Shown here piece after piece: positions 1,798 to 59,090 of a stretch of DNA of 64,000 nt. Every line of letters starts with the position of its first letter. The stretch's first letter is position 1. The translations under genes were made by a program, and so were the position numbers. Location of the stretch: positions 65,844,001 through 65,908,000 of the forward strand of contig OX597827.1 in assembly GCA_951406725.2 (NCBI GenBank), read 5' to 3'. The DNA is from Octopus vulgaris. Its lineage: Eukaryota. Under the pieces are notes generated by a model that was not told the origin of the DNA, did no database searches, and saw only the letters and a list, made by a program, of their open reading frames with translations.

Positions 1798-1828
<31 letters not shown>

Positions 1829-1971
1829 AAGAGAGAGAGAATATATAATGAGTTTCCGGCAACTGACGTAAAGAAATGTGTTTATAGTACGAGTGTTCGG
1901 TTTAGCTTGCCACTAAAACTCCAGTTCCACCAGCAACAGACTTGGTGTTGAGACCGCCTATCAGAAGAGGC

Positions 1972-2012
<41 letters not shown>

Positions 2013-2187
2013 TAAGAAAGTTTGTTTGGTAAAGCACGTGGGTGAATATATAAGAAAATAGTAAAGTGTGAAAAAACGACAGAAGGCTTAAATGTTAAAA
2101 GATATATATATTTGTGTCAAAATGTCTGGAGAATATTGGAAAAATTTTTTTTCCTTTCCTTAAAATGACATAATTTTTAAATTTTTA

Positions 2188-2227
2188 AAGAAATTACCGG
2201 TTTCGCGTGTAGCTTTTCAAATTTCTT
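2188..2227 (-). ncRNA. Minimal type-I hammerhead ribozyme, U3-A8 core variant (PLE 3' repeat)
   Basis: Minus strand: aagaaat-TTGAAAA-gc tacac gc-GAAA-ccgg-TA-atttctt, giving a 7-bp stem I, 2-bp stem II and palindromic stem III ACCGGT. Confidence 0.72.
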
Positions 2228-2362
2228 GTGACGTTATGTTTATATTGCATGGATTTATCGTTGTTTTTATTTCCAGGAGATTTCTAAATAAGGGGAGGTA
2301 GTGAGTGATTTTTCCGGTGTAGGGGAGATAATCGCTTAAAAAATTTTTTTCCCATTTCCTTA

Positions 2363-2738
2363 TTAATTTCTCTGTGTCAGTATGTTCGGATGGTTGAGTC
2401 TGGGTTTGTACTTTTCAATGAAGAATGTTTCCTTGTTCAGTCTCATTTGTGTTGATGATCCGAAAGCACATTGGTAAAATGGGAAGATTAAAAATTGTGG
2501 CAGTAGTTGCTTTGCGCATTTCTCAATGTGCTCACTAAAAGGTATCATTCTATATTCTGGGAATGCAATCTGTTGTCGATGCAGTGTGCATCTGCGCCTG
2601 AGTGATAGTCCCGTGGAACCCACGTAGTCTTGGTGGCAGCCCGAGCATTTAATAACATAAATTATGTTTTCAGAGGCACAAGTAAAGTTAGATTTGATCT
2701 TAAATTTCTGTCCTTCTTTAAAGAAGAATTCTGATCCT
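2363..2738 (-). pseudogene. PLE GIY-YIG endonuclease fragment (left arm)
   Basis: Translation FTCASENIIYVIKCSGCHQDYVGST..LRRRCTLH..RLNKETFFI..PRLN matches the GIY-YIG motif order (IY-YVG, R, H, E, N). The N-terminus of the listed ORF 2363..2830 is antisense read-through across the palindrome centre. Confidence 0.88.
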
Positions 2739-2739
2739 G

Positions 2740-3131
2740 GTCCTAACCTATTGGAAGGATCAGAATTCTTCTTTAAAGAAGGACAGAAATTTAAGATCAA
2801 ATCTAACTTTACTTGTGCCTCTGAAAACATAATTTATGTTATTAAATGCTCGGGCTGCCACCAAGACTACGTGGGTTCCACGGGACTATCACTCAGGCGC
2901 AGATGCACACTGCATCGACAACAGATTGCATTCCCAGAATATAGAATGATACCTTTTAGTGAGCACATTGAGAAATGCGCAAAGCAACTACTGCCACAAT
3001 TTTTAATCTTCCCATTTTACCAATGTGCTTTCGGATCATCAACACAAATGAGACTGAACAAGGAAACATTCTTCATTGAAAAGTACAAACCCAGACTCAA
3101 CCATCCGAACATACTGACACAGAGAAATTAA
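2740..3131 (+). pseudogene. PLE GIY-YIG endonuclease fragment (right arm)
   Basis: Same peptide as the left arm and as 22922..23374, 5'-truncated at PNLLEGSEF. Confidence 0.88.
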
Positions 3132-3264
3132 CAAGGAAATGGGAAAAAATTTTTTAAGCGATTATCTCCCTACACCGGAAAAATCACTCACTACCTCCCC
3201 TTATTTAGAAATCTCCTGGAAATAAAAACAACGATAAATCCATGCAATATAAACATAACGTCAC

Positions 3265-3304
3265 AAGAAATTTGAAAAGCTACACGCGAAACCGGTAATT
3301 TCTT
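3265..3304 (+). ncRNA. Minimal type-I hammerhead ribozyme, U3-A8 core variant (PLE 3' repeat)
   Basis: aagaaat-TTGAAAA-gc tacac gc-GAAA-ccgg-TA-atttctt; identical to the other three copies. Confidence 0.72.
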
Positions 3305-3468
3305 TAAAAATTTAAAAATTATGTCATTTTAAGGAAAGGAAAAAAAATTTTTCCAATATTCTCCAGACATTTTGACACAAATATATATATCTTTTAACAT
3401 TTAAGCCTTCTGTCGTTTTTTCACACTTTACTATTTTCTTATATATATATATATATATACATATATAT

Positions 3469-3605
3469 GGCCGTAGGCGTGGCTGCGTTGTAAGTCGCTT
3501 GCTTCCTAACCACATGACTCTACAAGTGCCCTCTAGTATAGCTTCGGGCCAACCAAAGCCATGTGAGTAGATTTGGTAGGTGGAAATTGAAAATATCTCG
3601 TCGAA
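3469..3605 (+). mobile_element. tRNA-derived SINE family A, degenerate 5' part
   Basis: ggccgtaggcgtggctgcgttgtaag...gccatgtgagtagatttggtagg matches the head of the full copies at 31877 and 39569. Confidence 0.7.
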
Positions 3606-3651
3606 TATATATATATATATATATATACATACACACTATCAATCGAATTAT

Positions 3652-3707
<56 letters not shown>

Positions 3708-22786: not shown

Positions 22787-22921
22787 GTGACGTTATGTTT
22801 ATATTGCATGGATTTATCGTTGTTTTTATTTCCAGGAGATTTCTAAATAAGGGGAGGTAGTGAGTGATTTTTCCGGTGTAGGGGAGATAATCGCTTAAAA
22901 ATTTTTTTTCCCATTTCCTTA

Positions 22922-24528
22922 TTAATTTCTCTGTGTCAGTATGTTCGGATGGTTGAGTCTGGGTTTGTACTTTTCAATGAAGAATGTTTCCTTGTTCAGT
23001 CTCATTTGTGTTGATGATCCGAAAGCACATTGGTAAAATGGGAAGATTAAAAATTGTGGCAGTAGTTGCTTTGCGCATTTCTCAATGTGCTCACTAAAAG
23101 GTATCATTCTATATTCTGGGAATGCAATCTGTTGTCGATGCAGTGTGCATCTGCGCCTGAGTGATAGTCCCGTGGAACCCACGTAGTCTTGGTGGCAGCC
23201 CGAGCATTTAATAACATAAATTATGTTTTCAGAGGCACAAGTAAAGTTAGATTTGATCTTAAATTTCTGTCCTTCTTTAAAGAAGAATTCTGATCCTTCC
23301 AATAGGTTAGGACATGTTGCACAGTTCGATCTACCACATTTTTTTACTTTTGCATCCGTAATTTTAGAAGACAATTTTGCCTTTGTGAGAATCTTTTTAA
23401 GTGATTTAGGCTGTTTGTAGCTTTTAATGATTTGGTGTATGTTTAGAATTTCCCTTAATTTTGGGTTTTTATGAAGTATTGGTAAATTCTGGGTGATGAT
23501 GGTGAAGGCTTCTTTGTTTCTGGGGTTGTATGTAGATATGTAAGGTAGTATTTTCGGGGAAGGTGTGTTGTTGTGTTGAACTTTTCTTAAAGTTTCTATG
23601 TTGATTTCTGTTGCACGTCTGATCCCATCCTCTATGAGTTGAGCTGGGTAATGTCTGTCAATTAGGGTGTTTTTTGAGTTCTTGCAGTCTAAAGTTCCTG
23701 GTATTTTGTTCTGACACTATTGTGCATATCCTTCTTGCAAGGTTGAAGGGTATGTTTGTTTTAGTGTGTCTTGGGTGGCATGAATTAAAAAGAAGGTATT
23801 GTTTGGCGTCTGTGGCTTTGTAAAAAATGTCTGTTTCTATTTTAAGGTTAATTTTTTTAATTAGTATATCCAAGAACGGAGCTCCTTTTGGTTGTATTCC
23901 ATTGTGAACTGTATATTTGGGTTTATGCTGTTCAATAGGTTTTTAAATTTTAGGAGTTTATCTATGTTTTCATTCCAGAGAATGAAACAATCGTCTAGGA
24001 ATCGTTTCCAATTCTCTTTTATGTATTGAGAGAGGGAGTTTCCAAAGATTGATAGAGATTCCTGGTAAATGATTATTTCCATGTATCCCATTGTTAAGTT
24101 CGCAATGACTGGTGCTGCCCTTGTACCCATAGCAATTCCGGATTTTTGACGGTAAAATGTATTGTCAAACATGAAGTGGTTATTGTGTAGGATGAATTCA
24201 ATTGATTTAGTAATGAATTCCTTACTGATCCTTTTTGGTATTTCTTCCGGAAATTGGTCTAACCAGAATTGTATTGCCTCCAGTCCATAATTATGAGGTA
24301 TACTGGTATACAAGTTGACTACATCAAATGAAACCAGGATTGTTTCTTCCTTGGTTTTTTTTGAAGGTGGTTTAACATATCTAAGTCATCTCTGATATGG
24401 CTATCGATATGTTTAAGGAAGGGTTTCAAGAGGATGTCCATAAGTAGACTTAGTCTGTGTGTTTCACAGGTTGGGCCAGCTACAATGGGTCGTAGTTTTA
24501 GGTCCCCCGGATTAGGTGTGTGTATGTA
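22922..24528 (-). pseudogene. PLE reverse transcriptase + GIY-YIG endonuclease ORF, 5'-truncated, three single-base frameshifts
   Basis: Motifs in order: LKLRPIVAG, LVSFDVVNLYTSIP, YRQKSGIAMGTRAAPVIANL, WKRFLDDCF, IQFTME, (LPF)LDI, DIFYKATD..QYL.FNSCHP, then GIY-YIG. Shifts at ~24363, ~23879 and ~23672. Confidence 0.93.
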
Positions 24529-24909
24529 TTGGAAGGATCAGAATTCTTCTTTAAAGAAGGACAGAAATTTAAGATCAAATCTAACTTTACTTGTGCCTCT
24601 GAAAACATAATTTATGTTATTAAATGCTCGGGCTGCCACCAAGACTACGTGGGTTCCACGGGACTATCACTCAGGCGCAGATGCACACTGCATCGACAAC
24701 AGATTGCATTCCCAGAATATAGAATGATACCTTTTAGTGAGCACATTGAGAAATGCGCAAAGCAACTACTGCCACAATTTTTAATCTTCCCATTTTACCA
24801 ATGTGCTTTCGGATCATCAACACAAATGAGACTGAACAAGGAAACATTCTTCATTGAAAAGTACAAACCCAGACTCAACCATCCGAACATACTGACACAG
24901 AGAAATTAA
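24527..24909 (+). pseudogene. GIY-YIG fragment in the inverted pseudo-LTR
   Basis: LEGSEFFFKEG...NHPNILTQRN identical to the minus-strand copy. Confidence 0.88.
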
Positions 24910-25044
24910 TAAGGAAATGGGAAAAAAATTTTTTAAGCGATTATCTCCCCTACACCGGAAAAATCACTCACTACCTCCCCTTATTTAGAAATCTCCTGGA
25001 AATAAAAACAACGATAAATCCATGCAATATAAACATAACGTCAC

Positions 25045-25084
25045 AAGAAATTTGAAAAGCTACACGCGAAACCGGTAATTTCTT
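25045..25084 (+). ncRNA. Minimal type-I hammerhead ribozyme, U3-A8 core variant (PLE 3' repeat)
   Basis: Stem I 25045-51/25078-84, core TTGAAAA 25052-58, GAAA 25068-71, predicted cleavage after A25077. Confidence 0.72.
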
Positions 25085-25280
25085 TAAAAATTTAAAAATT
25101 ATGTCATTTTAAGGAAAGGAAAAAAATTTTTCCAATATTCTCCAGACATTTTGACACAAATATATATATCTTTTAACATTTAAGCCTTCTGTCGTTTTTT
25201 CACACTTTACTATTTTCTTATATATTCACCCACGTGCTTTACCAAACAAACTTTCTTATCTATATATATATATATATATA

Positions 25281-25804
25281 AATTTAACAATTAAGGAATG
25301 GCCTTAATAGGCCATTCGTCCACTAGAAAGAGCAGCCATGACTCAAACCGCTAAGTAGTAGTAATTCAGAAATTAGGTGAAAATTTAAAAAGTTTACCCT
25401 AATTCATCTTTAGACGATGCATCGTTTCAGTGTTTTTAATGGTAAACTAGCTTAATTAAATTAACTTAAGTCAATCTACCATAGGTTACACTTCATCAGT
25501 AAAGAAACCAGGAGAGACGGATATACACGAGGCGTCTGTATCAATGCCCTCGGAATATCTGCCTTAAAATTTTCAAGACCATCGTATTCGCGCCAACTTA
25601 TCAGCAGTAAATATAAACTACCGATTCAATCTCAGAATTAGTCAGAAAATCATCAATTAATCAATTTAGGGTAGCAAAAAATTCAATAGAAATTTATCGC
25701 TACCAGCGTTCTAGTGGGAAAGAGAAAATAGTCAGAGACTAAATATATAAATTTATCGCTGGTAGCGATAAATTTCTATTGAATTTTTTGCTACCCTAAA
25801 TTGA

Positions 25805-25810
<6 letters not shown>
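25281..25810 (-). mobile_element. Retrozyme-like monomer (family B), diverged homologue of the 485-bp array unit, with a short terminal inversion
   Basis: Colinear with 54628-55110 (ttaacaattaaggaa.ggcc.taataggccattc..ccactagaaa; taatggtaaacta; acacgaggc; taaaattttcaa; agtggga). 54-bp inverted repeat 25655-25708/25757-25810. (TA)n on both sides. Confidence 0.85.
25407..25505 (-). ncRNA. Type-I hammerhead ribozyme with extended stem II (family B)
   Basis: Minus strand: tcttta-CTGATGA-agtgt[long hairpin]acact-GAAA-cgatgcatcg-TC-taaaga; canonical core and GUC triplet. Confidence 0.92.
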
Positions 25811-25869
<59 letters not shown>

Positions 25870-25919
25870 TATATATAAATATATATATATATGTGTGTGT
25901 GTGTATGTGTGTGTGTCTG

Positions 25920-26257: not shown

Positions 26258-27192
26258 TGGCTTCAACGTTTGCTACAATGCTAAATCGATGACATCAATA
26301 CCAGTGTTCAACTGGTATCGACCACGAAGGAAGGATGAAAGGTAAAATCGATCTCGGCAGCGTTATTTGATTTCAGAAATCGCACACAGACGAAATACCG
26401 CGAATTATATTGGCGGACACTTTTTACGATTCTTATTTCTTTATAGCCCACAAGGAGCTAAACATAGCGGGGTCGAAAAAGGACAGACAAAGTGATCAAG
26501 TCGATTACATCGACGCCAGTCCGTAATTAGTACTTATTTAATCGACACCGAAGGATGAAAGGCTAAGTCGACCTCGGCAGAATTTGAACTCAAAACGTAG
26601 CGGCAGACGAAATACCTATTTCTTTACTACCCACAAGAGGCTAAACACAGAGATAACAACCAAGGACAGACAAATGGATTAAGTCGACTATATCGACCGC
26701 ATTGCGTAACTGGTACTTATTTAACCGACTCCGAAAGGATGAAAGCAAAGTCGACCTCGGCGGCGGCAGACGAAATACCTATTTCTTTTCTACCCACAAG
26801 GGGCTAAACACAGAGAGGACAAACAAGGACAGACAAACGGATTAAGTCGATTATATCGACCCCAGTGCGTAACTGGTACTTATTTAATCGACCCGGAAAG
26901 CATGAAAGGCTATGTCGACCTCGGCGGAATTTGAACTCAGAACGTAACGGCAGACGAAATACCTATTTCTTTATTACCCACAAGGGGCTAAACACAGAGC
27001 GGACAAACAAGGACAGGCATAGGTATTAAGTCGATTACATCGACCCCAGTGCGTAACTGGTACTTAATTCATCGATCCCGAAATGATGAAAGGCAAAGTC
27101 GACCTCGGCGGAATTTGAACTCACAACGTAACGCAGACGAAATACCGCTAAGTATTTCGCCCGGCGTGCTAATGTTTCTGTCAGTTCGCCGC
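26258..27192 (-). mobile_element. SINE family B with ~5 internal tandem units of ~140-190 bp
   Basis: Repeated gatgaaaggcaaagtcgacctcggcggaatttgaactcagaacgta.cggcagacgaaatacctatttcttta.tacccacaagggg; tRNA-like head at the right end. Confidence 0.85.
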
Positions 27193-28544: not shown

Positions 28545-28970
28545 TGAAATACCTAATTCTTTACTACCCACAACGGGCTAAACACAGAGTGGGACAAGCA
28601 AGGACAAACAAAGGGATTAAGCCGATTACATTGACCCTAGTGCATAACTGGTACTTATTTTATCGACCGCGAAAAGATGAAAGGCAAAGTCAACCTCGGC
28701 GGAATTTGAACTCAGAACGTAGCGGCAGACGAAATTCCTATTTCTTTACTACCCACAAGGAGCCAAACACAGAGGGGACAAACAAGGAGAGATAAACAGA
28801 TTAAGTCGATTATATCGACTTCAGTGCGTAACTGGTTCTTAATTCATCGACCCCGAAAGGATGAAAAGCAAAGTCGACCTCGGCGAAATTTGAACTGAGA
28901 ACATAGCGGCAGACGAAATAACGCTAAGCATTTCGCTCGGCGTGCTAAGGTTTCTGCCAGCTCGCCGGCT
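28545..28970 (-). mobile_element. SINE family B with two internal units
   Basis: Same unit as 26258-27192; head ..cggcgtgctaaggtttctgccagctcgcc. Confidence 0.8.
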
Positions 28971-54595: not shown

Positions 54596-54632
<37 letters not shown>

Positions 54633-54750
54633 CAATTAAGGAACGGCCATAATAGGCCATTCACCCACTAGAAATAACAGCCAAAGCTTCTACCGCAAAT
54701 AAAGATCAATTCCGTAAACAGGAGAAAATTAAAAAAACATTTACCCTGTA

Positions 54751-54857
54751 ATTTCTTGTACGGTATACCGTTTCATCTGCTGTTTAATGGTAAACTAACC
54801 TGATTAAATTAAATCAAGCCAATCTTCCATAAGCCCTCAGATTCTTCAGCAAGAAAT
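54751..54857 (-). ncRNA. Type-I hammerhead ribozyme, array left arm copy 1
   Basis: atttcttg-CTGAAGA-atctg[long hairpin]cagat-GAAA-cggtataccg-TA-caagaaat on the minus strand. Confidence 0.92.
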
Positions 54858-55233
54858 AGCTCAAGTCGGAACAGATATTTACACGAGGCATACCCAATCC
54901 TGCCAAGGCAATATCTGACCTAAAATTTTCAAATCGTCGCACTCGCGCCAAATTTATCGGCAGCAAATAAATCGTCGATTCCATTACGGAATTAACCAAA
55001 AAATTCATAATTAATCAATATAGGGTGGCAAGGAAAATTTTGTAGAATTTTTTTGCCACCAGCGGCCAGTGGGAAAAAATTAAATAGTCATAGACCATTT
55101 TAAGTTCAACATTAACAATTAAGGAACGGCCATAATAGGCCATTCACCCACTAGAAATAACAGCCAAAGCTTCTACCGCAAATAAAGATCAATTCCGTAA
55201 ACAGGAGAAAATTAAAAAAACATTTACCCTGTA

Positions 55234-55340
55234 ATTTCTTGTACGGTATACCGTTTCATCTGCTGTTTAATGGTAAACTAACCTGATTAAATTAAATCAA
55301 GCCAATCTTCCATAAGCCCTCAGATTCTTCAGCAAGAAAT
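55234..55340 (-). ncRNA. Type-I hammerhead ribozyme, array left arm copy 2
   Basis: Same motif as 54751-54857. Confidence 0.92.
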
Positions 55341-55717
55341 AGCTCAAGTCGGAACAGATATTTACACGAGGCATACCCAATCCTGCCAAGGCAATATCTG
55401 ACCTAAAATTTTCAAATCGTCGCACTCGCGCCAAATTTATCGGCAGCAAATAAATCGTCGATTCCATTACGGAATTAACCAAAAAATTCATAATTAATCA
55501 ATATAGGGTGGCAAGGAAAATTTTGTAGAATTTTTTTGCCACCAGCGGCCAGTGGGAAAAAATTAAATAGTCATAGACCATTTTTAAGTTCAACATTAAC
55601 AATTAAGGAACGGCCATAATAGGCCATTCACCCACTAGAAATAACAGCCAAAGCTTCTACCGCAAATAAAGATCAATTCCGTAAACAGGAGAAAATTAAA
55701 AAAACATTTACCCTGTA

Positions 55718-55824
55718 ATTTCTTGTACGGTATACCGTTTCATCTGCTGTTTAATGGTAAACTAACCTGATTAAATTAAATCAAGCCAATCTTCCATAAG
55801 CCCTCAGATTCTTCAGCAAGAAAT
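55718..55824 (-). ncRNA. Type-I hammerhead ribozyme, array left arm copy 3
   Basis: Same motif. A fourth copy (56215-56301) is cut by the inversion and lacks CTGAAGA. Confidence 0.92.
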
Positions 55825-56307
55825 AGCTCAAGTCGGAACAGATATTTACACGAGGCATACCCAATCCTGCCAAGGCAATATCTGACCTAAAATTTGACCT
55901 AAAATTTTCAAATCGTCGCACTCGCGCCAAATTTATCGGCAGCAAATAAATCGTCGATTCCATTACGGAATTAACCAAAAAATTCATAATTAATCAATAT
56001 AGGGTGGCAAGGAAAATTTTGTAGAATTTTTTTGCCACTAGCGGCCCAGTGGGAAAAAATTAAATAGTCATAGACCATTTTTAAGTTCAACATTAACAAT
56101 TAAGGAACGGCCTTAATAGGCCATTCACCCACTAGAAATAACAGCCAAAGCTTCTACCGCAAATAAAGATCAATTCCGTAAACAGGAGAAAATTAAAAAA
56201 ACATTTACCCTGTAATTTCTTGTACGGTATACCGTTTCATCTGCTGTTTAATGGTAAACTAACCTGATTAAATTAAATCAAGCCAATCTTCCATAAGCCC
56301 TTGAGCT

Positions 56308-56414
56308 ATTTCTTGCTGAAGAATCTGAGGGCTTATGGAAGATTGGCTTGATTTAATTTAATCAGGTTAGTTTACCATTAAACAGCAGATGAAACGGTAT
56401 ACCGTACAAGAAAT
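56308..56414 (+). ncRNA. Type-I hammerhead ribozyme, array right arm copy 1
   Basis: Stem I 56308-15/56407-14, CTGAAGA 56316-22, stem II atctg/cagat, GAAA 56391-94, stem III cggt/accg, predicted cleavage after A56406. Confidence 0.93.
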
Positions 56415-56791
56415 TACAGGGTAAATGTTTTTTTAATTTTCTCCTGTTTACGGAATTGATCTTTATTTGCGGTAGAAGCTTTGGCTGTTATTTCTAGTGG
56501 GTGAATGGCCTATTATGGCCGTTCCTTAATTGTTAATGTTGAACTTAAAAATGGTCTATGACTATTTAATTTTTCCCACTGGGCCGCTGGTGGCAAAAAA
56601 ATTCTACAAAATTTTCCTTGCCACCCTATATTGATTAATTATGAATTTTTTGGTTAATTCCGTAATGGAATCGACGATTTATTTGCTGCCGATAAATTTG
56701 GCGCGAGTGCGACGATTTGAAAATTTTAGGTCAGATATTGCCTTGGCAGGATTGGGTATGCCTCGTGTAAATATCTGTTCCGACTTGAGCT

Positions 56792-56898
56792 ATTTCTTGC
56801 TGAAGAATCTGAGGGCTTATGGAAGATTGGCTTGATTTAATTTAATCAGGTTAGTTTACCATTAAACAGCAGATGAAACGGTATACCGTACAAGAAAT
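56792..56898 (+). ncRNA. Type-I hammerhead ribozyme, array right arm copy 2
   Basis: Same motif; predicted cleavage after 56890. Confidence 0.93.
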
Positions 56899-57274
56899 TA
56901 CAGGGTAAATGTTTTTTTAATTTTCTCCTGTTTACGGAATTGATCTTTATTTGCGGTAGAAGCTTTGGCTGTTATTTCTAGTGGGTGAATGGCCTATTAT
57001 GGCCGTTCCTTAATTGTTAATGTTGAACTTAAAATGGTCTATGACTATTTAATTTTTTCCCACTGGGCCGCTGGTGGCAAAAAAATTCTACAAAATTTTC
57101 CTTGCCACCCTATATTGATTAATTATGAATTTTTGGTTAATTCCGTAATGGAATCGACGATTTATTTGCTGCCGATAAATTTGGCGCGAGTGCGACGATT
57201 TGAAAATTTTAGGTCAGATATTGCCTTGGCAGGATTGGGTATGCCTCGTGTAAATATCTGTTCCGACTTGAGCT

Positions 57275-57381
57275 ATTTCTTGCTGAAGAATCTGAGGGCT
57301 TATGGAAGATTGGCTTGATTTAATTTAATCAGGTTAGTTTACCATTAAACAGCAGATGAAACGGTATACCGTACAAGAAAT
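57275..57381 (+). ncRNA. Type-I hammerhead ribozyme, array right arm copy 3
   Basis: Same motif; predicted cleavage after 57373. Confidence 0.93.
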
Positions 57382-57757
57382 TACAGGGTAAATGTTTTTT
57401 AATTTTCTCCTGTTTACGGAATTGATCTTTATTTGCGGTAGAAGCTTTGGCTGTTATTTCTAGTGGGTGAATGGCCTATTATGGCCGTTCCTTAATTGTT
57501 AATGTTGAACTTAAAAATGGTCTATGACTATTTAATTTTTTCCCACTGGGCCGCTGGTGGCAAAAAAATTCTACAAAATTTTCCTGCCACCCTATATTGA
57601 TTAATTATGAATTTTTTGGTTAATTCCGTAATGGAATCGACGATTTATTTGCTGCCGATAAATTTGGCGCGAGTGCGACGATTTGAAAATTTTAGGTCAG
57701 ATATTGCCTTGGCAGGATTGGGTATGCCTCGTGTAAATATCTGTTCCGACTTGAGCT

Positions 57758-57864
57758 ATTTCTTGCTGAAGAATCTGAGGGCTTATGGAAGATTGGCTTG
57801 ATTTAATTTAATCAGGTTAGTTTACCAGTAAACAGCAGATGAAACGGTATACCGTACAAGAAAT
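57758..57864 (+). ncRNA. Type-I hammerhead ribozyme, array right arm copy 4
   Basis: Same motif with one substitution in the stem II extension; predicted cleavage after 57856. Confidence 0.93.
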
Positions 57865-58242
57865 TACAGGGTAAATGTTTTTTTAATTTTCTCCTGTTTA
57901 CGGAATTGATCTTTATTTGCGGTAGAAGCTTTGGCTGTTATTTCTAGTGGGTGAATGGCCTATTATGGCCGTTCCTTAATTGTTAATGTTGAACTTAAAA
58001 ATGGTCTATGACTATTTAATTTTTTCCCACTGGGCCGCTGGTGGCAAAAAAATTCTACAAAATTTTCCTTGCCACCCTATATTGATTAATTATGAATTTT
58101 TTGGTTAATTCCGTAATGGAATCGACGATTTATTTGCTGCCGATAAATTTGGCGCGAGTGCGACGATTTGAAAATTTTAGGTCAGATATTGCCTTGGCAG
58201 GATTGGGTATGCCTCGTGTAAATATCTGTTCCGACTTGAGCT

Positions 58243-58349
58243 ATTTCTTGCTGAAGAATCTGAGGGCTTATGGAAGATTGGCTTGATTTAATTTAATCAG
58301 GTTAGTTTACCATTAAACAGCAGATGAAACGGTATACCGTACAAGAAAT
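58243..58349 (+). ncRNA. Type-I hammerhead ribozyme, array right arm copy 5
   Basis: Same motif; predicted cleavage after 58341. Confidence 0.93.
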
Positions 58350-58727
58350 TACAGGGTAAATGTTTTTTTAATTTTCTCCTGTTTACGGAATTGATCTTTA
58401 TTTGCGGTAGAAGCTTTGGCTGTTATTTCTAGTGGGTGAATGGCCTATTATGGCCGTTCCTTAATTGTTAATGTTGAACTTAAAAATGGTCTATGACTAT
58501 TTAATTTTTTCCCACTGGGCCGCTGGTGGCAAAAAAATTCTACAAAATTTTCCTTGCCACCCTATATTGATTAATTATGAATTTTTTGGTTAATTCCGTA
58601 ATGGAATCGACGATTTATTTGCTGCCGATAAATTTGGCGCGAGTGCGACGATTTGAAAATTTTAGGTCAGATATTGCCTTGGCAGGATTGGGTATGCCTC
58701 GTGTAAATATCTGTTCCGACTTGAGCT

Positions 58728-58834
58728 ATTTCTTGCTGAAGAATCTGAGGGCTTATGGAAGATTGGCTTGATTTAATTTAATCAGGTTAGTTTACCATTA
58801 AACAGCAGATGAAACGGTATACCGTACAAGAAAT
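58728..58834 (+). ncRNA. Type-I hammerhead ribozyme, array right arm copy 6
   Basis: Same motif; predicted cleavage after 58826. Confidence 0.93.
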
Positions 58835-59052
58835 TACAGGGTAAATGTTTTTTTAATTTTCTCCTGTTTACGGAATTGATCTTTATTTGCGGTAGAAGCT
58901 TTGGCTGTTATTTCTAGTGGGTGAATGGCCTATTATGGCCGTTCCTTAATTGTTAATGTTGAACTTAAAAATGGTCTATGACTATTTAATTTTTTCCCAC
59001 TGGGCCGCTGGTGGCAAAAAAATTCTACAAAATTTTCCTTGCCACCCTATAT

Positions 59053-59090
<38 letters not shown>

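Follow-up and report, generated by a model that had tools for sequence, protein, structure and literature searches.

A hammerhead retrozyme family of Octopus vulgaris with an insertion anatomy of the Penelope-like type

The retrozyme copy and its family

In a stretch of 64,000 nt of Octopus vulgaris DNA (contig OX597827.1), called here the window, a repeat with a hammerhead motif starts next to the end of a Penelope-like element (PLE), which raises the questions of what this repeat is, whether its ribozyme is under selection, and whether its position reflects a target shared with the PLE or an insertion together with it. The parts of the locus, and the sister array in the window, are listed below. 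Statements on cited papers refer to the parts of their text that were available.

25261–25280, no strand: (TA)10 tract of 20 nt, common to the PLE end and the retrozyme end
25281–25752, minus strand: complete retrozyme unit of subfamily B, ~472 nt (sequence comparison)
25296–25317, minus strand: 3′ hairpin directly before the short end, with a U-A pair where the array has a U-G wobble
25670–25704, minus strand: hairpin within the opening ~97 nt of the unit, the stretch that makes up the one-sided tail
about 25749–25775: palindromic junction between the retrozyme copy and the inverted piece
25757–25810, plus strand: inverted piece, unit positions 45–98, which ends at the family's long 3′ end (sequence comparison)
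25811–25892, no strand: (TA)n tract at the right end of the retrozyme insertion
54628–59056, no strand assigned: sister array of the young subfamily A1, 483–485-nt units with nine hammerhead cores

The copy at 25281–25752 is a genomic monomer of a retroelement that is non-autonomous and carries a hammerhead, that is, of a non-LTR retrozyme, and with its single hammerhead it is probably a product rather than a source of mobilisation. The initial annotation treated the whole of 25281–25810 as colinear with the array unit, which holds for 25281–25752 (71–74% identity over ~460 nt), while the rest is the inverted piece. The ~20 bp of (TA)n that it placed after the PLE end at 25260 measure 20 nt, and the two further hairpins that it described as kept were located at 25296–25317 and at 25670–25704; one pair of the latter is A-U here, G-C in the array and G-U in subfamily C. 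The 3′ end of the copy is the family's short end and lies within (TA)n. An open reading frame (ORF) scan found no ORF of at least 150 amino acids (aa) across the copy, the GC content was 27–32% in the parts of the locus that were measured, and there were no LTR features. The whole unit folded with a z-score of −5.4, and none of 100 shuffled sequences folded as well. Tandem ~163–184-nt units at 26330–27150 and 28546–28920 of the window belong to a different repeat, which is unrelated to the retrozyme by BLAST.

The size of the family was estimated by several searches of the 2.8-Gb genome. The 25281–25752 monomer as query returned 2,089 candidates, with the near-full-length matches among the 40 of these that were scored being 91–99% identical, while the array unit returned 1,217 candidates, and copies of 100% identity to it on 11 contigs. 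The 3′ hairpin pattern had 4,373 exact matches genome-wide, as against none for the reversed control, and the first 100 of them corresponded to 38 insertions in 66 Mb, from which a genome total of roughly 1,600 insertions can be extrapolated. The hammerhead pattern gave 291 matches compared with 7 in the control. The 441 hammerhead regions from the fetched loci, in which overlapping loci are counted repeatedly, comprised 118 distinct sequences in 35 clusters at 95%, and at least five subfamilies were distinguished among them: A1 (the young arrays), A2, B (which includes the 25281–25752 copy), C, and D (whose core is CCGAUGA). Hence, the earlier proposal of at least two subfamilies was borne out. 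Tandem repeats with one hammerhead per unit occur in the array and in subfamily B dimers and trimers, and the 25281–25752 locus is a monomer. The array has a head-to-head inversion at ~56300, a short end on its left and a long end on its right, both in (TA)n; one of its units contains a 12-bp duplication (55883–55907) close to the inversion point. Contigs of four sequencing runs under two organism labels, guessed to be RNA with none of the runs catalogued as such, covered the unit; no start, end, strand or circle was visible in these contigs, from which the TA junction was skipped.

The non-coding units, low GC and lack of LTR features place the family among the non-LTR retrozymes of metazoans, as defined by Cervera and de la Pena (2020; PMC7229834), who regard PLEs as a strong candidate mobiliser. 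The likeness extends to the tandem unit with one type I hammerhead, the range from monomers to multimers, the thousands of copies and the occurrence alongside PLEs with minimal hammerheads. The octopus family differs in its 470–490-nt unit, which is above the ~170–400 nt of those retrozymes, and in the ~55-nt internally looped hairpin that is added to stem II. The unit size is within the 51–972 bp of the retrozyme consensus sequences in a later study (10.64898/2026.07.22.740005). The words "inverted", "target site" and "microsatellite" are absent from the main text of PMC7229834, which describes no double 3′ ends, tail or (TA)n targeting.

The hammerhead and the covariation of its stems

The hammerhead was assigned on the minus strand as follows.

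25407–25505: type I hammerhead (sequence, covariation and constrained fold)
25505–25500 / 25412–25407: stem I, UCUUUA/UAAAGA
25499–25493: core CUGAUGA
25428–25425: core GAAA
between 25413 and 25412: expected cut at the GUC site, predicted from the motif
25434–25487: extension of stem II, a 5×5 internal loop followed by an AU-rich hairpin of 11+5 bp where loop 2 would be

The arrangement of CUGANGA, GAAA and NUH at a three-stem junction would class the motif, as judged from its sequence, as a type I hammerhead. The core and the GUC site of the initial annotation are present in the 25281–25752 copy; the array has a GUA triplet rather than GUC, and core position 7 is A in the array and U in this copy. 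The compensatory changes that it listed for stems I, II and III are also present, with two qualifications. In stem II, which has 5 bp in this copy (AGUGU/ACACU), pairing is kept relative to the AUCUG/CAGAU of the array, but the stem adjoins indels, and the changes need not all be point-for-point. In stem III, noted as CGAU/AUCG, 3 bp are kept, but the fourth "pair" can form only in a dimer; the stem consists of 3 bp and A15.1-U16.1, its tetraloop being palindromic (UGCA or UAUA, in this copy UGCA). The long stem II hairpin, reported before as retained, was found in all subfamilies, and in helices 3–5 of this extension 89–100% of cells are paired. A tertiary contact of this region with the bulge of stem I may exist. 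The stem III palindromes have self-pairing energies of −15 to −19 kcal/mol, as compared with 0 to −3 as hairpins, which agrees with the dimer mode described for the minimal hammerheads of PLEs (PMC4209133). The retrozyme hammerhead shares with these the type I topology, the palindromic stem III suited to dimers and the many compensatory changes, but it is not minimal, having the canonical C3:G8 and a real stem III, unlike that of the EN+ PLEs.

The 121-nt hammerhead region folded with a z-score of −4.3, and none of 200 shuffles folded as well. The lowest-energy fold of the 25281–25752 copy is an inactive alternative, which traps the core and is 2.4 kcal/mol below the hammerhead fold, while in the young array hammerhead the local gap between the two folds is 0. 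Rfam at the gathering threshold gave no match, and hence no hammerhead, in the whole window, and the seven weak matches over 24900–25900 did not include a hammerhead; the models were probably defeated by the long insert in stem II. The miRNA matches at 25668–25797 were rejected, as they reflect the inverted repeat and are far below the gathering scores.

The alignment used for covariation comprised 26 of the 35 cluster representatives and the 25281–25752 copy, with the nine others left out as truncated, chimeric or duplicate. The data showed that 93.5% of the 765 cells of 29 pairs could pair, compared with 84.9% in shuffled alignments (0 of 500 as high) and 29–45% when the structure was slid along the same 27-row alignment. 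Changes on both sides were found in 90 cells, as against 29 in shuffles. Two of five covariation measures did not exceed the shuffles, these being the number of double-change pairs (12 versus 10.7; 121/500) and of further pair types (34 versus 35.8). Positions C3, G5, A6, G8, A9, GAAA and U16.1 were invariant in 27 of 27 rows, some of which had been retrieved with the core pattern.

Kinship was taken into account with a tree of 24 rows, built from ~107 nt outside the ribozyme, in which 2 of 21 branches were strongly supported. On this tree nine of the ten core-flanking pairs change, typically two to four times per side, and intermediates with a wobble pair were found, as in stem III with G-C, G-U and A-U. 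The tree-aware test was run without the two rows with a deleted stem II and without the 25281–25752 copy, and its null was obtained by re-evolving the 3′ columns. In this test 231 of 240 cells stayed paired, while the null averaged 159 and did not exceed 198 (0 of 3,000); the removal of broken rows and the choice of structure from the data favour covariation in this comparison, and the margin is nonetheless wide. Thus, the covariation held in the larger alignment, and such repeated compensatory change across subfamilies argues for selection on an RNA fold. These data point to covariation that is real and to a ribozyme that would be under selection at the family level. To that extent the earlier conclusion of a functional ribozyme is supported, with the two measures that were not above shuffles counting against it.

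Strict selection is argued against by two groups of variants. Several spread subfamily B variants have a mismatched first stem II pair (A-C or A-A), and group D carries U4C, a change that lowers activity in vitro and still allows viroid infectivity (PMC3088659). Both kinds of variants provide natural tests of how much cleavage the retrozyme cycle needs. The spread subfamily with the U4C core was seen at L019, L176, L230, L237 and other loci. Together, the subfamilies amount to a covariation series provided by nature, wobble intermediates included, for a hammerhead whose stem II is unusually long.

Insertion anatomy of the retrozyme and of its PLE neighbour

The ends of 102 retrozyme insertions were compared, and 154 of 162 outward 3′ ends were located at two fixed positions: the short end, which lies ~130 nt beyond the cut site, and the long end, ~97 nt into the next unit. 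Sixty of the insertions had outward 3′ ends on both sides, in a head-to-head inversion, and the other 42 had one 5′-truncated end. The combination of a short with a long end was observed in 52 insertions, two long ends in one, and two short ends in none; the queries behind these locus sets were biased towards the short end or towards near-complete units. In a position-ordered subset, whose search pattern adjoins and favours the short end, 22 of 37 insertions were of the short-and-long type. Both the 25281–25810 locus and the array at 54628–59056 fit this plan. The target was also consistent, as 183 of 229 retrozyme ends lay within (TA)n, compared with 9.3% of random positions. The array subfamily has no internal TATATA at the short end, so that the end positions are not simply due to target microhomology. 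Hence, the insertions show the inverted 5′-truncated copy, the one-sided tail (~97 nt) and the microsatellite target of PLE-type insertions. This anatomy, which the initial annotation had missed, is a stronger link to PLEs than the adjacency of the two elements.

The neighbouring PLE follows the same plan on a larger scale, and consists of the parts given below.

22612 to ~24535, minus strand: 5′-truncated arm with reverse transcriptase (RT), thumb, CX4CxxC and GIY-YIG (RVT_1 match and translation)
~24527–25260, plus strand: inverted 3′ arm, head-to-head with the minus-strand arm
25045–25084, plus strand: minimal hammerhead (from the sequence), with a mirror copy near 22790–22830 on the minus strand
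25221–25260: tail of ~40 nt, on one side only

In its translation the RT is followed by a CX4CxxC linker and, at the C-terminus, by a GIY-YIG with CCHH-like residues; Pfam named RVT_1 but not the endonuclease, and the GIY-YIG and CCHH motifs were read by eye against a published description (10.1101/2021.04.23.441226). By the motif criteria of that paper the translated sequence assigns this PLE to the Neptune/Nematis type; the CX4CxxC and CCHH motifs ruled out assignment to the Hydra clade. The PLE hammerhead has a 7-bp stem I, a UUGAAAA core (U3:A8), a 2-bp stem II, GAAA, a palindromic CCGG and a GUA site. It lies in the 3′ UTR of the PLE, is unrelated in sequence to the retrozyme hammerhead and corresponds to a U3:A8 variant described before (PMC4209133); a similar one was seen in a second family (L171, L160). 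The full PLE unit is a ~4.0-kb tandem with one hammerhead, in which the one-sided tail is the beginning of the unit that follows. The PLE family is young, with 150 among the matches listed at 99–100%, several of them in 811-aa open frames. Another inverted insertion of this family lies at ~1800–3700 of the window. In long copies (L151 and L154; G000 C16 and C25) a 495-aa frame overlaps the 811-aa RT-endonuclease frame, which may reflect an intron or a frameshift. Frames of 776–847 aa occur in a second young PLE family (L251–L255); its 3′ UTR is long, (GT/AT)-rich and microsatellite-like, yet conserved between copies, so that the family spreads simple repeats.

The likeness of the retrozyme to EN+ PLEs of the Neptune/Nematis type (10.1101/2021.04.23.441226; PMC3846280) includes partial tandems, the head-to-head inverted truncated copy, the one-sided tail, the palindromic junction, the microsatellite targets and a hammerhead in the terminal repeat. 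The retrozyme differs from these elements in having no ORF, a unit of ~0.48 kb rather than ~4 kb, and a tail of ~97 nt rather than 30–40 nt. Comparison of the retrozyme with the adjacent PLE gave only short AT-rich matches, the best being a 27-nt low-complexity match on the opposite strand, and no homology was found to the second young family, so that pLTR homology to an autonomous PLE was not seen in the 3′ regions of the two families compared.

Mobilisation of the retrozyme and its adjacency to the PLE

The insertion anatomy points to mobilisation in trans by PLE enzymes, and an independent retrozyme moved in this way is what we consider the probable explanation. According to this model, tandem arrays would be transcribed, and the hammerhead, one per ~470–490-nt unit, with the structure and selection described above, would cut the multimer, probably as a dimer via the palindromic stem III. 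The unit RNAs would then circularise, as proposed from other retrozymes. The GIY-YIG endonuclease of a PLE would nick (TA)n, and its RT would prime at a fixed site ~130 nt downstream from the cut and copy part of the unit, or one or many rounds of it; the fixed 3′ ends, the variable 5′ truncation and the identical arrays are the observations on which this step is modelled. A second priming ~97 nt further on could build the inverted arm and the tail that are seen in the insertions. The model is supported by the presence in the genome of two PLE families that are young and have long open frames, and by the PLE hallmarks of inverted copy, one-sided tail and microsatellite bias (10.1101/2021.04.23.441226; PMC3846280). 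PLE action in trans on pLTR-flanked cargo has also been reported (PMC3846280). Arguments against it are that the unit is without homology to the 3′ regions of the two PLE families compared, that the tail exceeds the length reported for PLEs, and that some spread variants (an A-C or A-A mismatch in the first pair of stem II, or U4C) weaken the ribozyme.

Alternatively, the unit could be the terminal repeat (pLTR) of an unsampled autonomous PLE family, and its copies truncated PLE ends moved in cis. The unit does show the full PLE anatomy, 24 of 57 Xenopus retrozyme families are similar to known elements, which are nearly all PLE termini (10.64898/2026.07.22.740005), and about 20,000 endonuclease candidates suggest many PLE families, of which two were compared. 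However, the unit closes on itself in ~470–490 nt in arrays without an ORF, and a PLE ORF match running into the unit was found in none of 115 insertions, the nearest cases among which were inspected; this makes movement in cis unlikely. The unit may descend from a pLTR long ago, which would suit mobilisation in trans too.

The adjacency of the two elements, which had been ascribed to a shared target or to co-insertion, was examined from both sides. PLE ends, like retrozyme ends, sit in (TA)n, in agreement with the shared target. No retrozyme was found within 400 nt of any of 48 other distinct 3′ ends of the neighbouring PLE's family. When subfamilies A and B served as queries, 29 other PLE-tail loci were likewise free of one within 1.5 kb, and a subfamily C query found one retrozyme fragment ~1.45 kb from a PLE tail (L076). 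Of 115 other retrozyme insertions, one abuts the neighbouring PLE's family (L153, with the PLE 50–70 nt from a subfamily B insertion). A PLE-like tail beyond the flanking TA tract was found at 5 of 170 retrozyme sides compared with 5 of 550 background tract sides (p = 0.06), or 2 of 547 (p = 0.01) without three non-independent background matches that are far ends of the same neighbours. This comparison is under-powered; its background consists of the flanks of fetched loci and the window rather than random genomic tracts, and two of its three tail queries were derived from its own matches. The window's own background was 7 of 160, which includes the two ends of the neighbouring PLE and five sides of one other PLE insertion. 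The TA tracts that flank retrozymes were also longer (median 42 versus 34 nt). The five PLE-type neighbours of retrozymes come from different families, and the weak excess of such mixed neighbours is what shared hot spots would give. At most, hot tracts would be shared a few-fold, and about 97% of retrozyme ends are without a PLE-type neighbour.

These counts also bear on the idea of a joint entry of the retrozyme and the PLE, through a template jump or in a chimeric transcript. The 20-nt distance, the similar arrangement at L153 and the weak excess of PLE-type neighbours fit such an event, but the counts of 0/48 and 1/115 do not, the two elements are oriented with their 3′ ends towards one another on either side of the TA tract, both 3′ ends are complete in each of them, and the five neighbours are of different families. 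Moreover, the retrozyme copy has 6 differences in 460 positions from its nearest sampled kin and the PLE 6 in 2,594, so the retrozyme copy looks older, a weak indication by sequence because most of its six differences recur in other B copies. Entry together is therefore improbable, and co-insertion as an account of the adjacency did not hold up. We propose instead that the neighbouring PLE reached this TA tract in an insertion of its own, the adjacency at 25260/25281 being due to the (TA)n target common to both. This single case of adjacency matters little.

The tandem arrays and the inactive best fold of the 25281–25752 copy would also suit satellite DNA with a relic hammerhead, spread at the DNA level by extrachromosomal circles or unequal exchange, but the fixed 3′ ends with variable 5′ truncation, the strict polarity, the (TA)n targeting and the compensatory change repeated across subfamilies make this very unlikely. 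LINE insertions can be truncated and inverted, which is a point for a true retrozyme moved by a LINE-type element instead of a PLE, but twin-priming by LINEs gives an inverted arm with a variable outer end, while the retrozyme copies have no poly(A) or element-specific tail and, as in PLEs, both outward ends are fixed 3′ ends with the extension on one only. A LINE-type mover, which PMC7229834 leaves possible, thus also has very little probability.

Mobilisation in trans by PLE enzymes agrees with the dependence on PLEs that was argued from co-occurrence across 35 species and from Xenopus pLTR homology (10.64898/2026.07.22.740005). The dispersed monomers are likewise common to both studies; the octopus case differs in that it rests on insertion anatomy, with pLTR homology absent in two families. 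In that study cleavage was observed for one of nine elements assayed, which advises caution on predicted activity. In their available text, this paper and PMC7229834 argue PLE mobilisation only indirectly, and arguments on the autonomous mover of animal retrozymes continue to draw on co-occurrence and partial homology. The literature searched, with supplements outside the search and subscription papers mostly so, held no description of the octopus family or of its insertion anatomy in retrozymes. The retrozyme class is therefore known, while the family with its long stem II and its informative PLE-type scar is new. Tentatively, it can be offered as direct genomic evidence, not yet in print, for an animal retrozyme that is retrotransposed in trans by PLE enzymes without detectable common sequence, from a ~0.48-kb circular RNA with two fixed priming sites and a full PLE scar. 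If this is true, with both partners recently active, the retrozyme would be the smallest natural substrate for the study of PLE integration, and a route to what PLE proteins recognise, which would be structure rather than sequence. The building of tandem and inverted PLE insertions has been named an open problem (10.1101/2021.04.23.441226). Both questions can be tested in the octopus genome, since it holds a young retrozyme subfamily, young PLE families and insertion junctions whose number is of the order of a thousand.

Two other small elements in (TA)n (L215:1932–2434 and L007:492–1443) also showed an inversion and a one-sided tail, with no PLE ORF match. A motif like the minimal hammerhead is clear in L215, while in L007, which has a tandem unit of ~430 nt, stem I is doubtful. 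These elements may be other non-autonomous passengers of PLEs.
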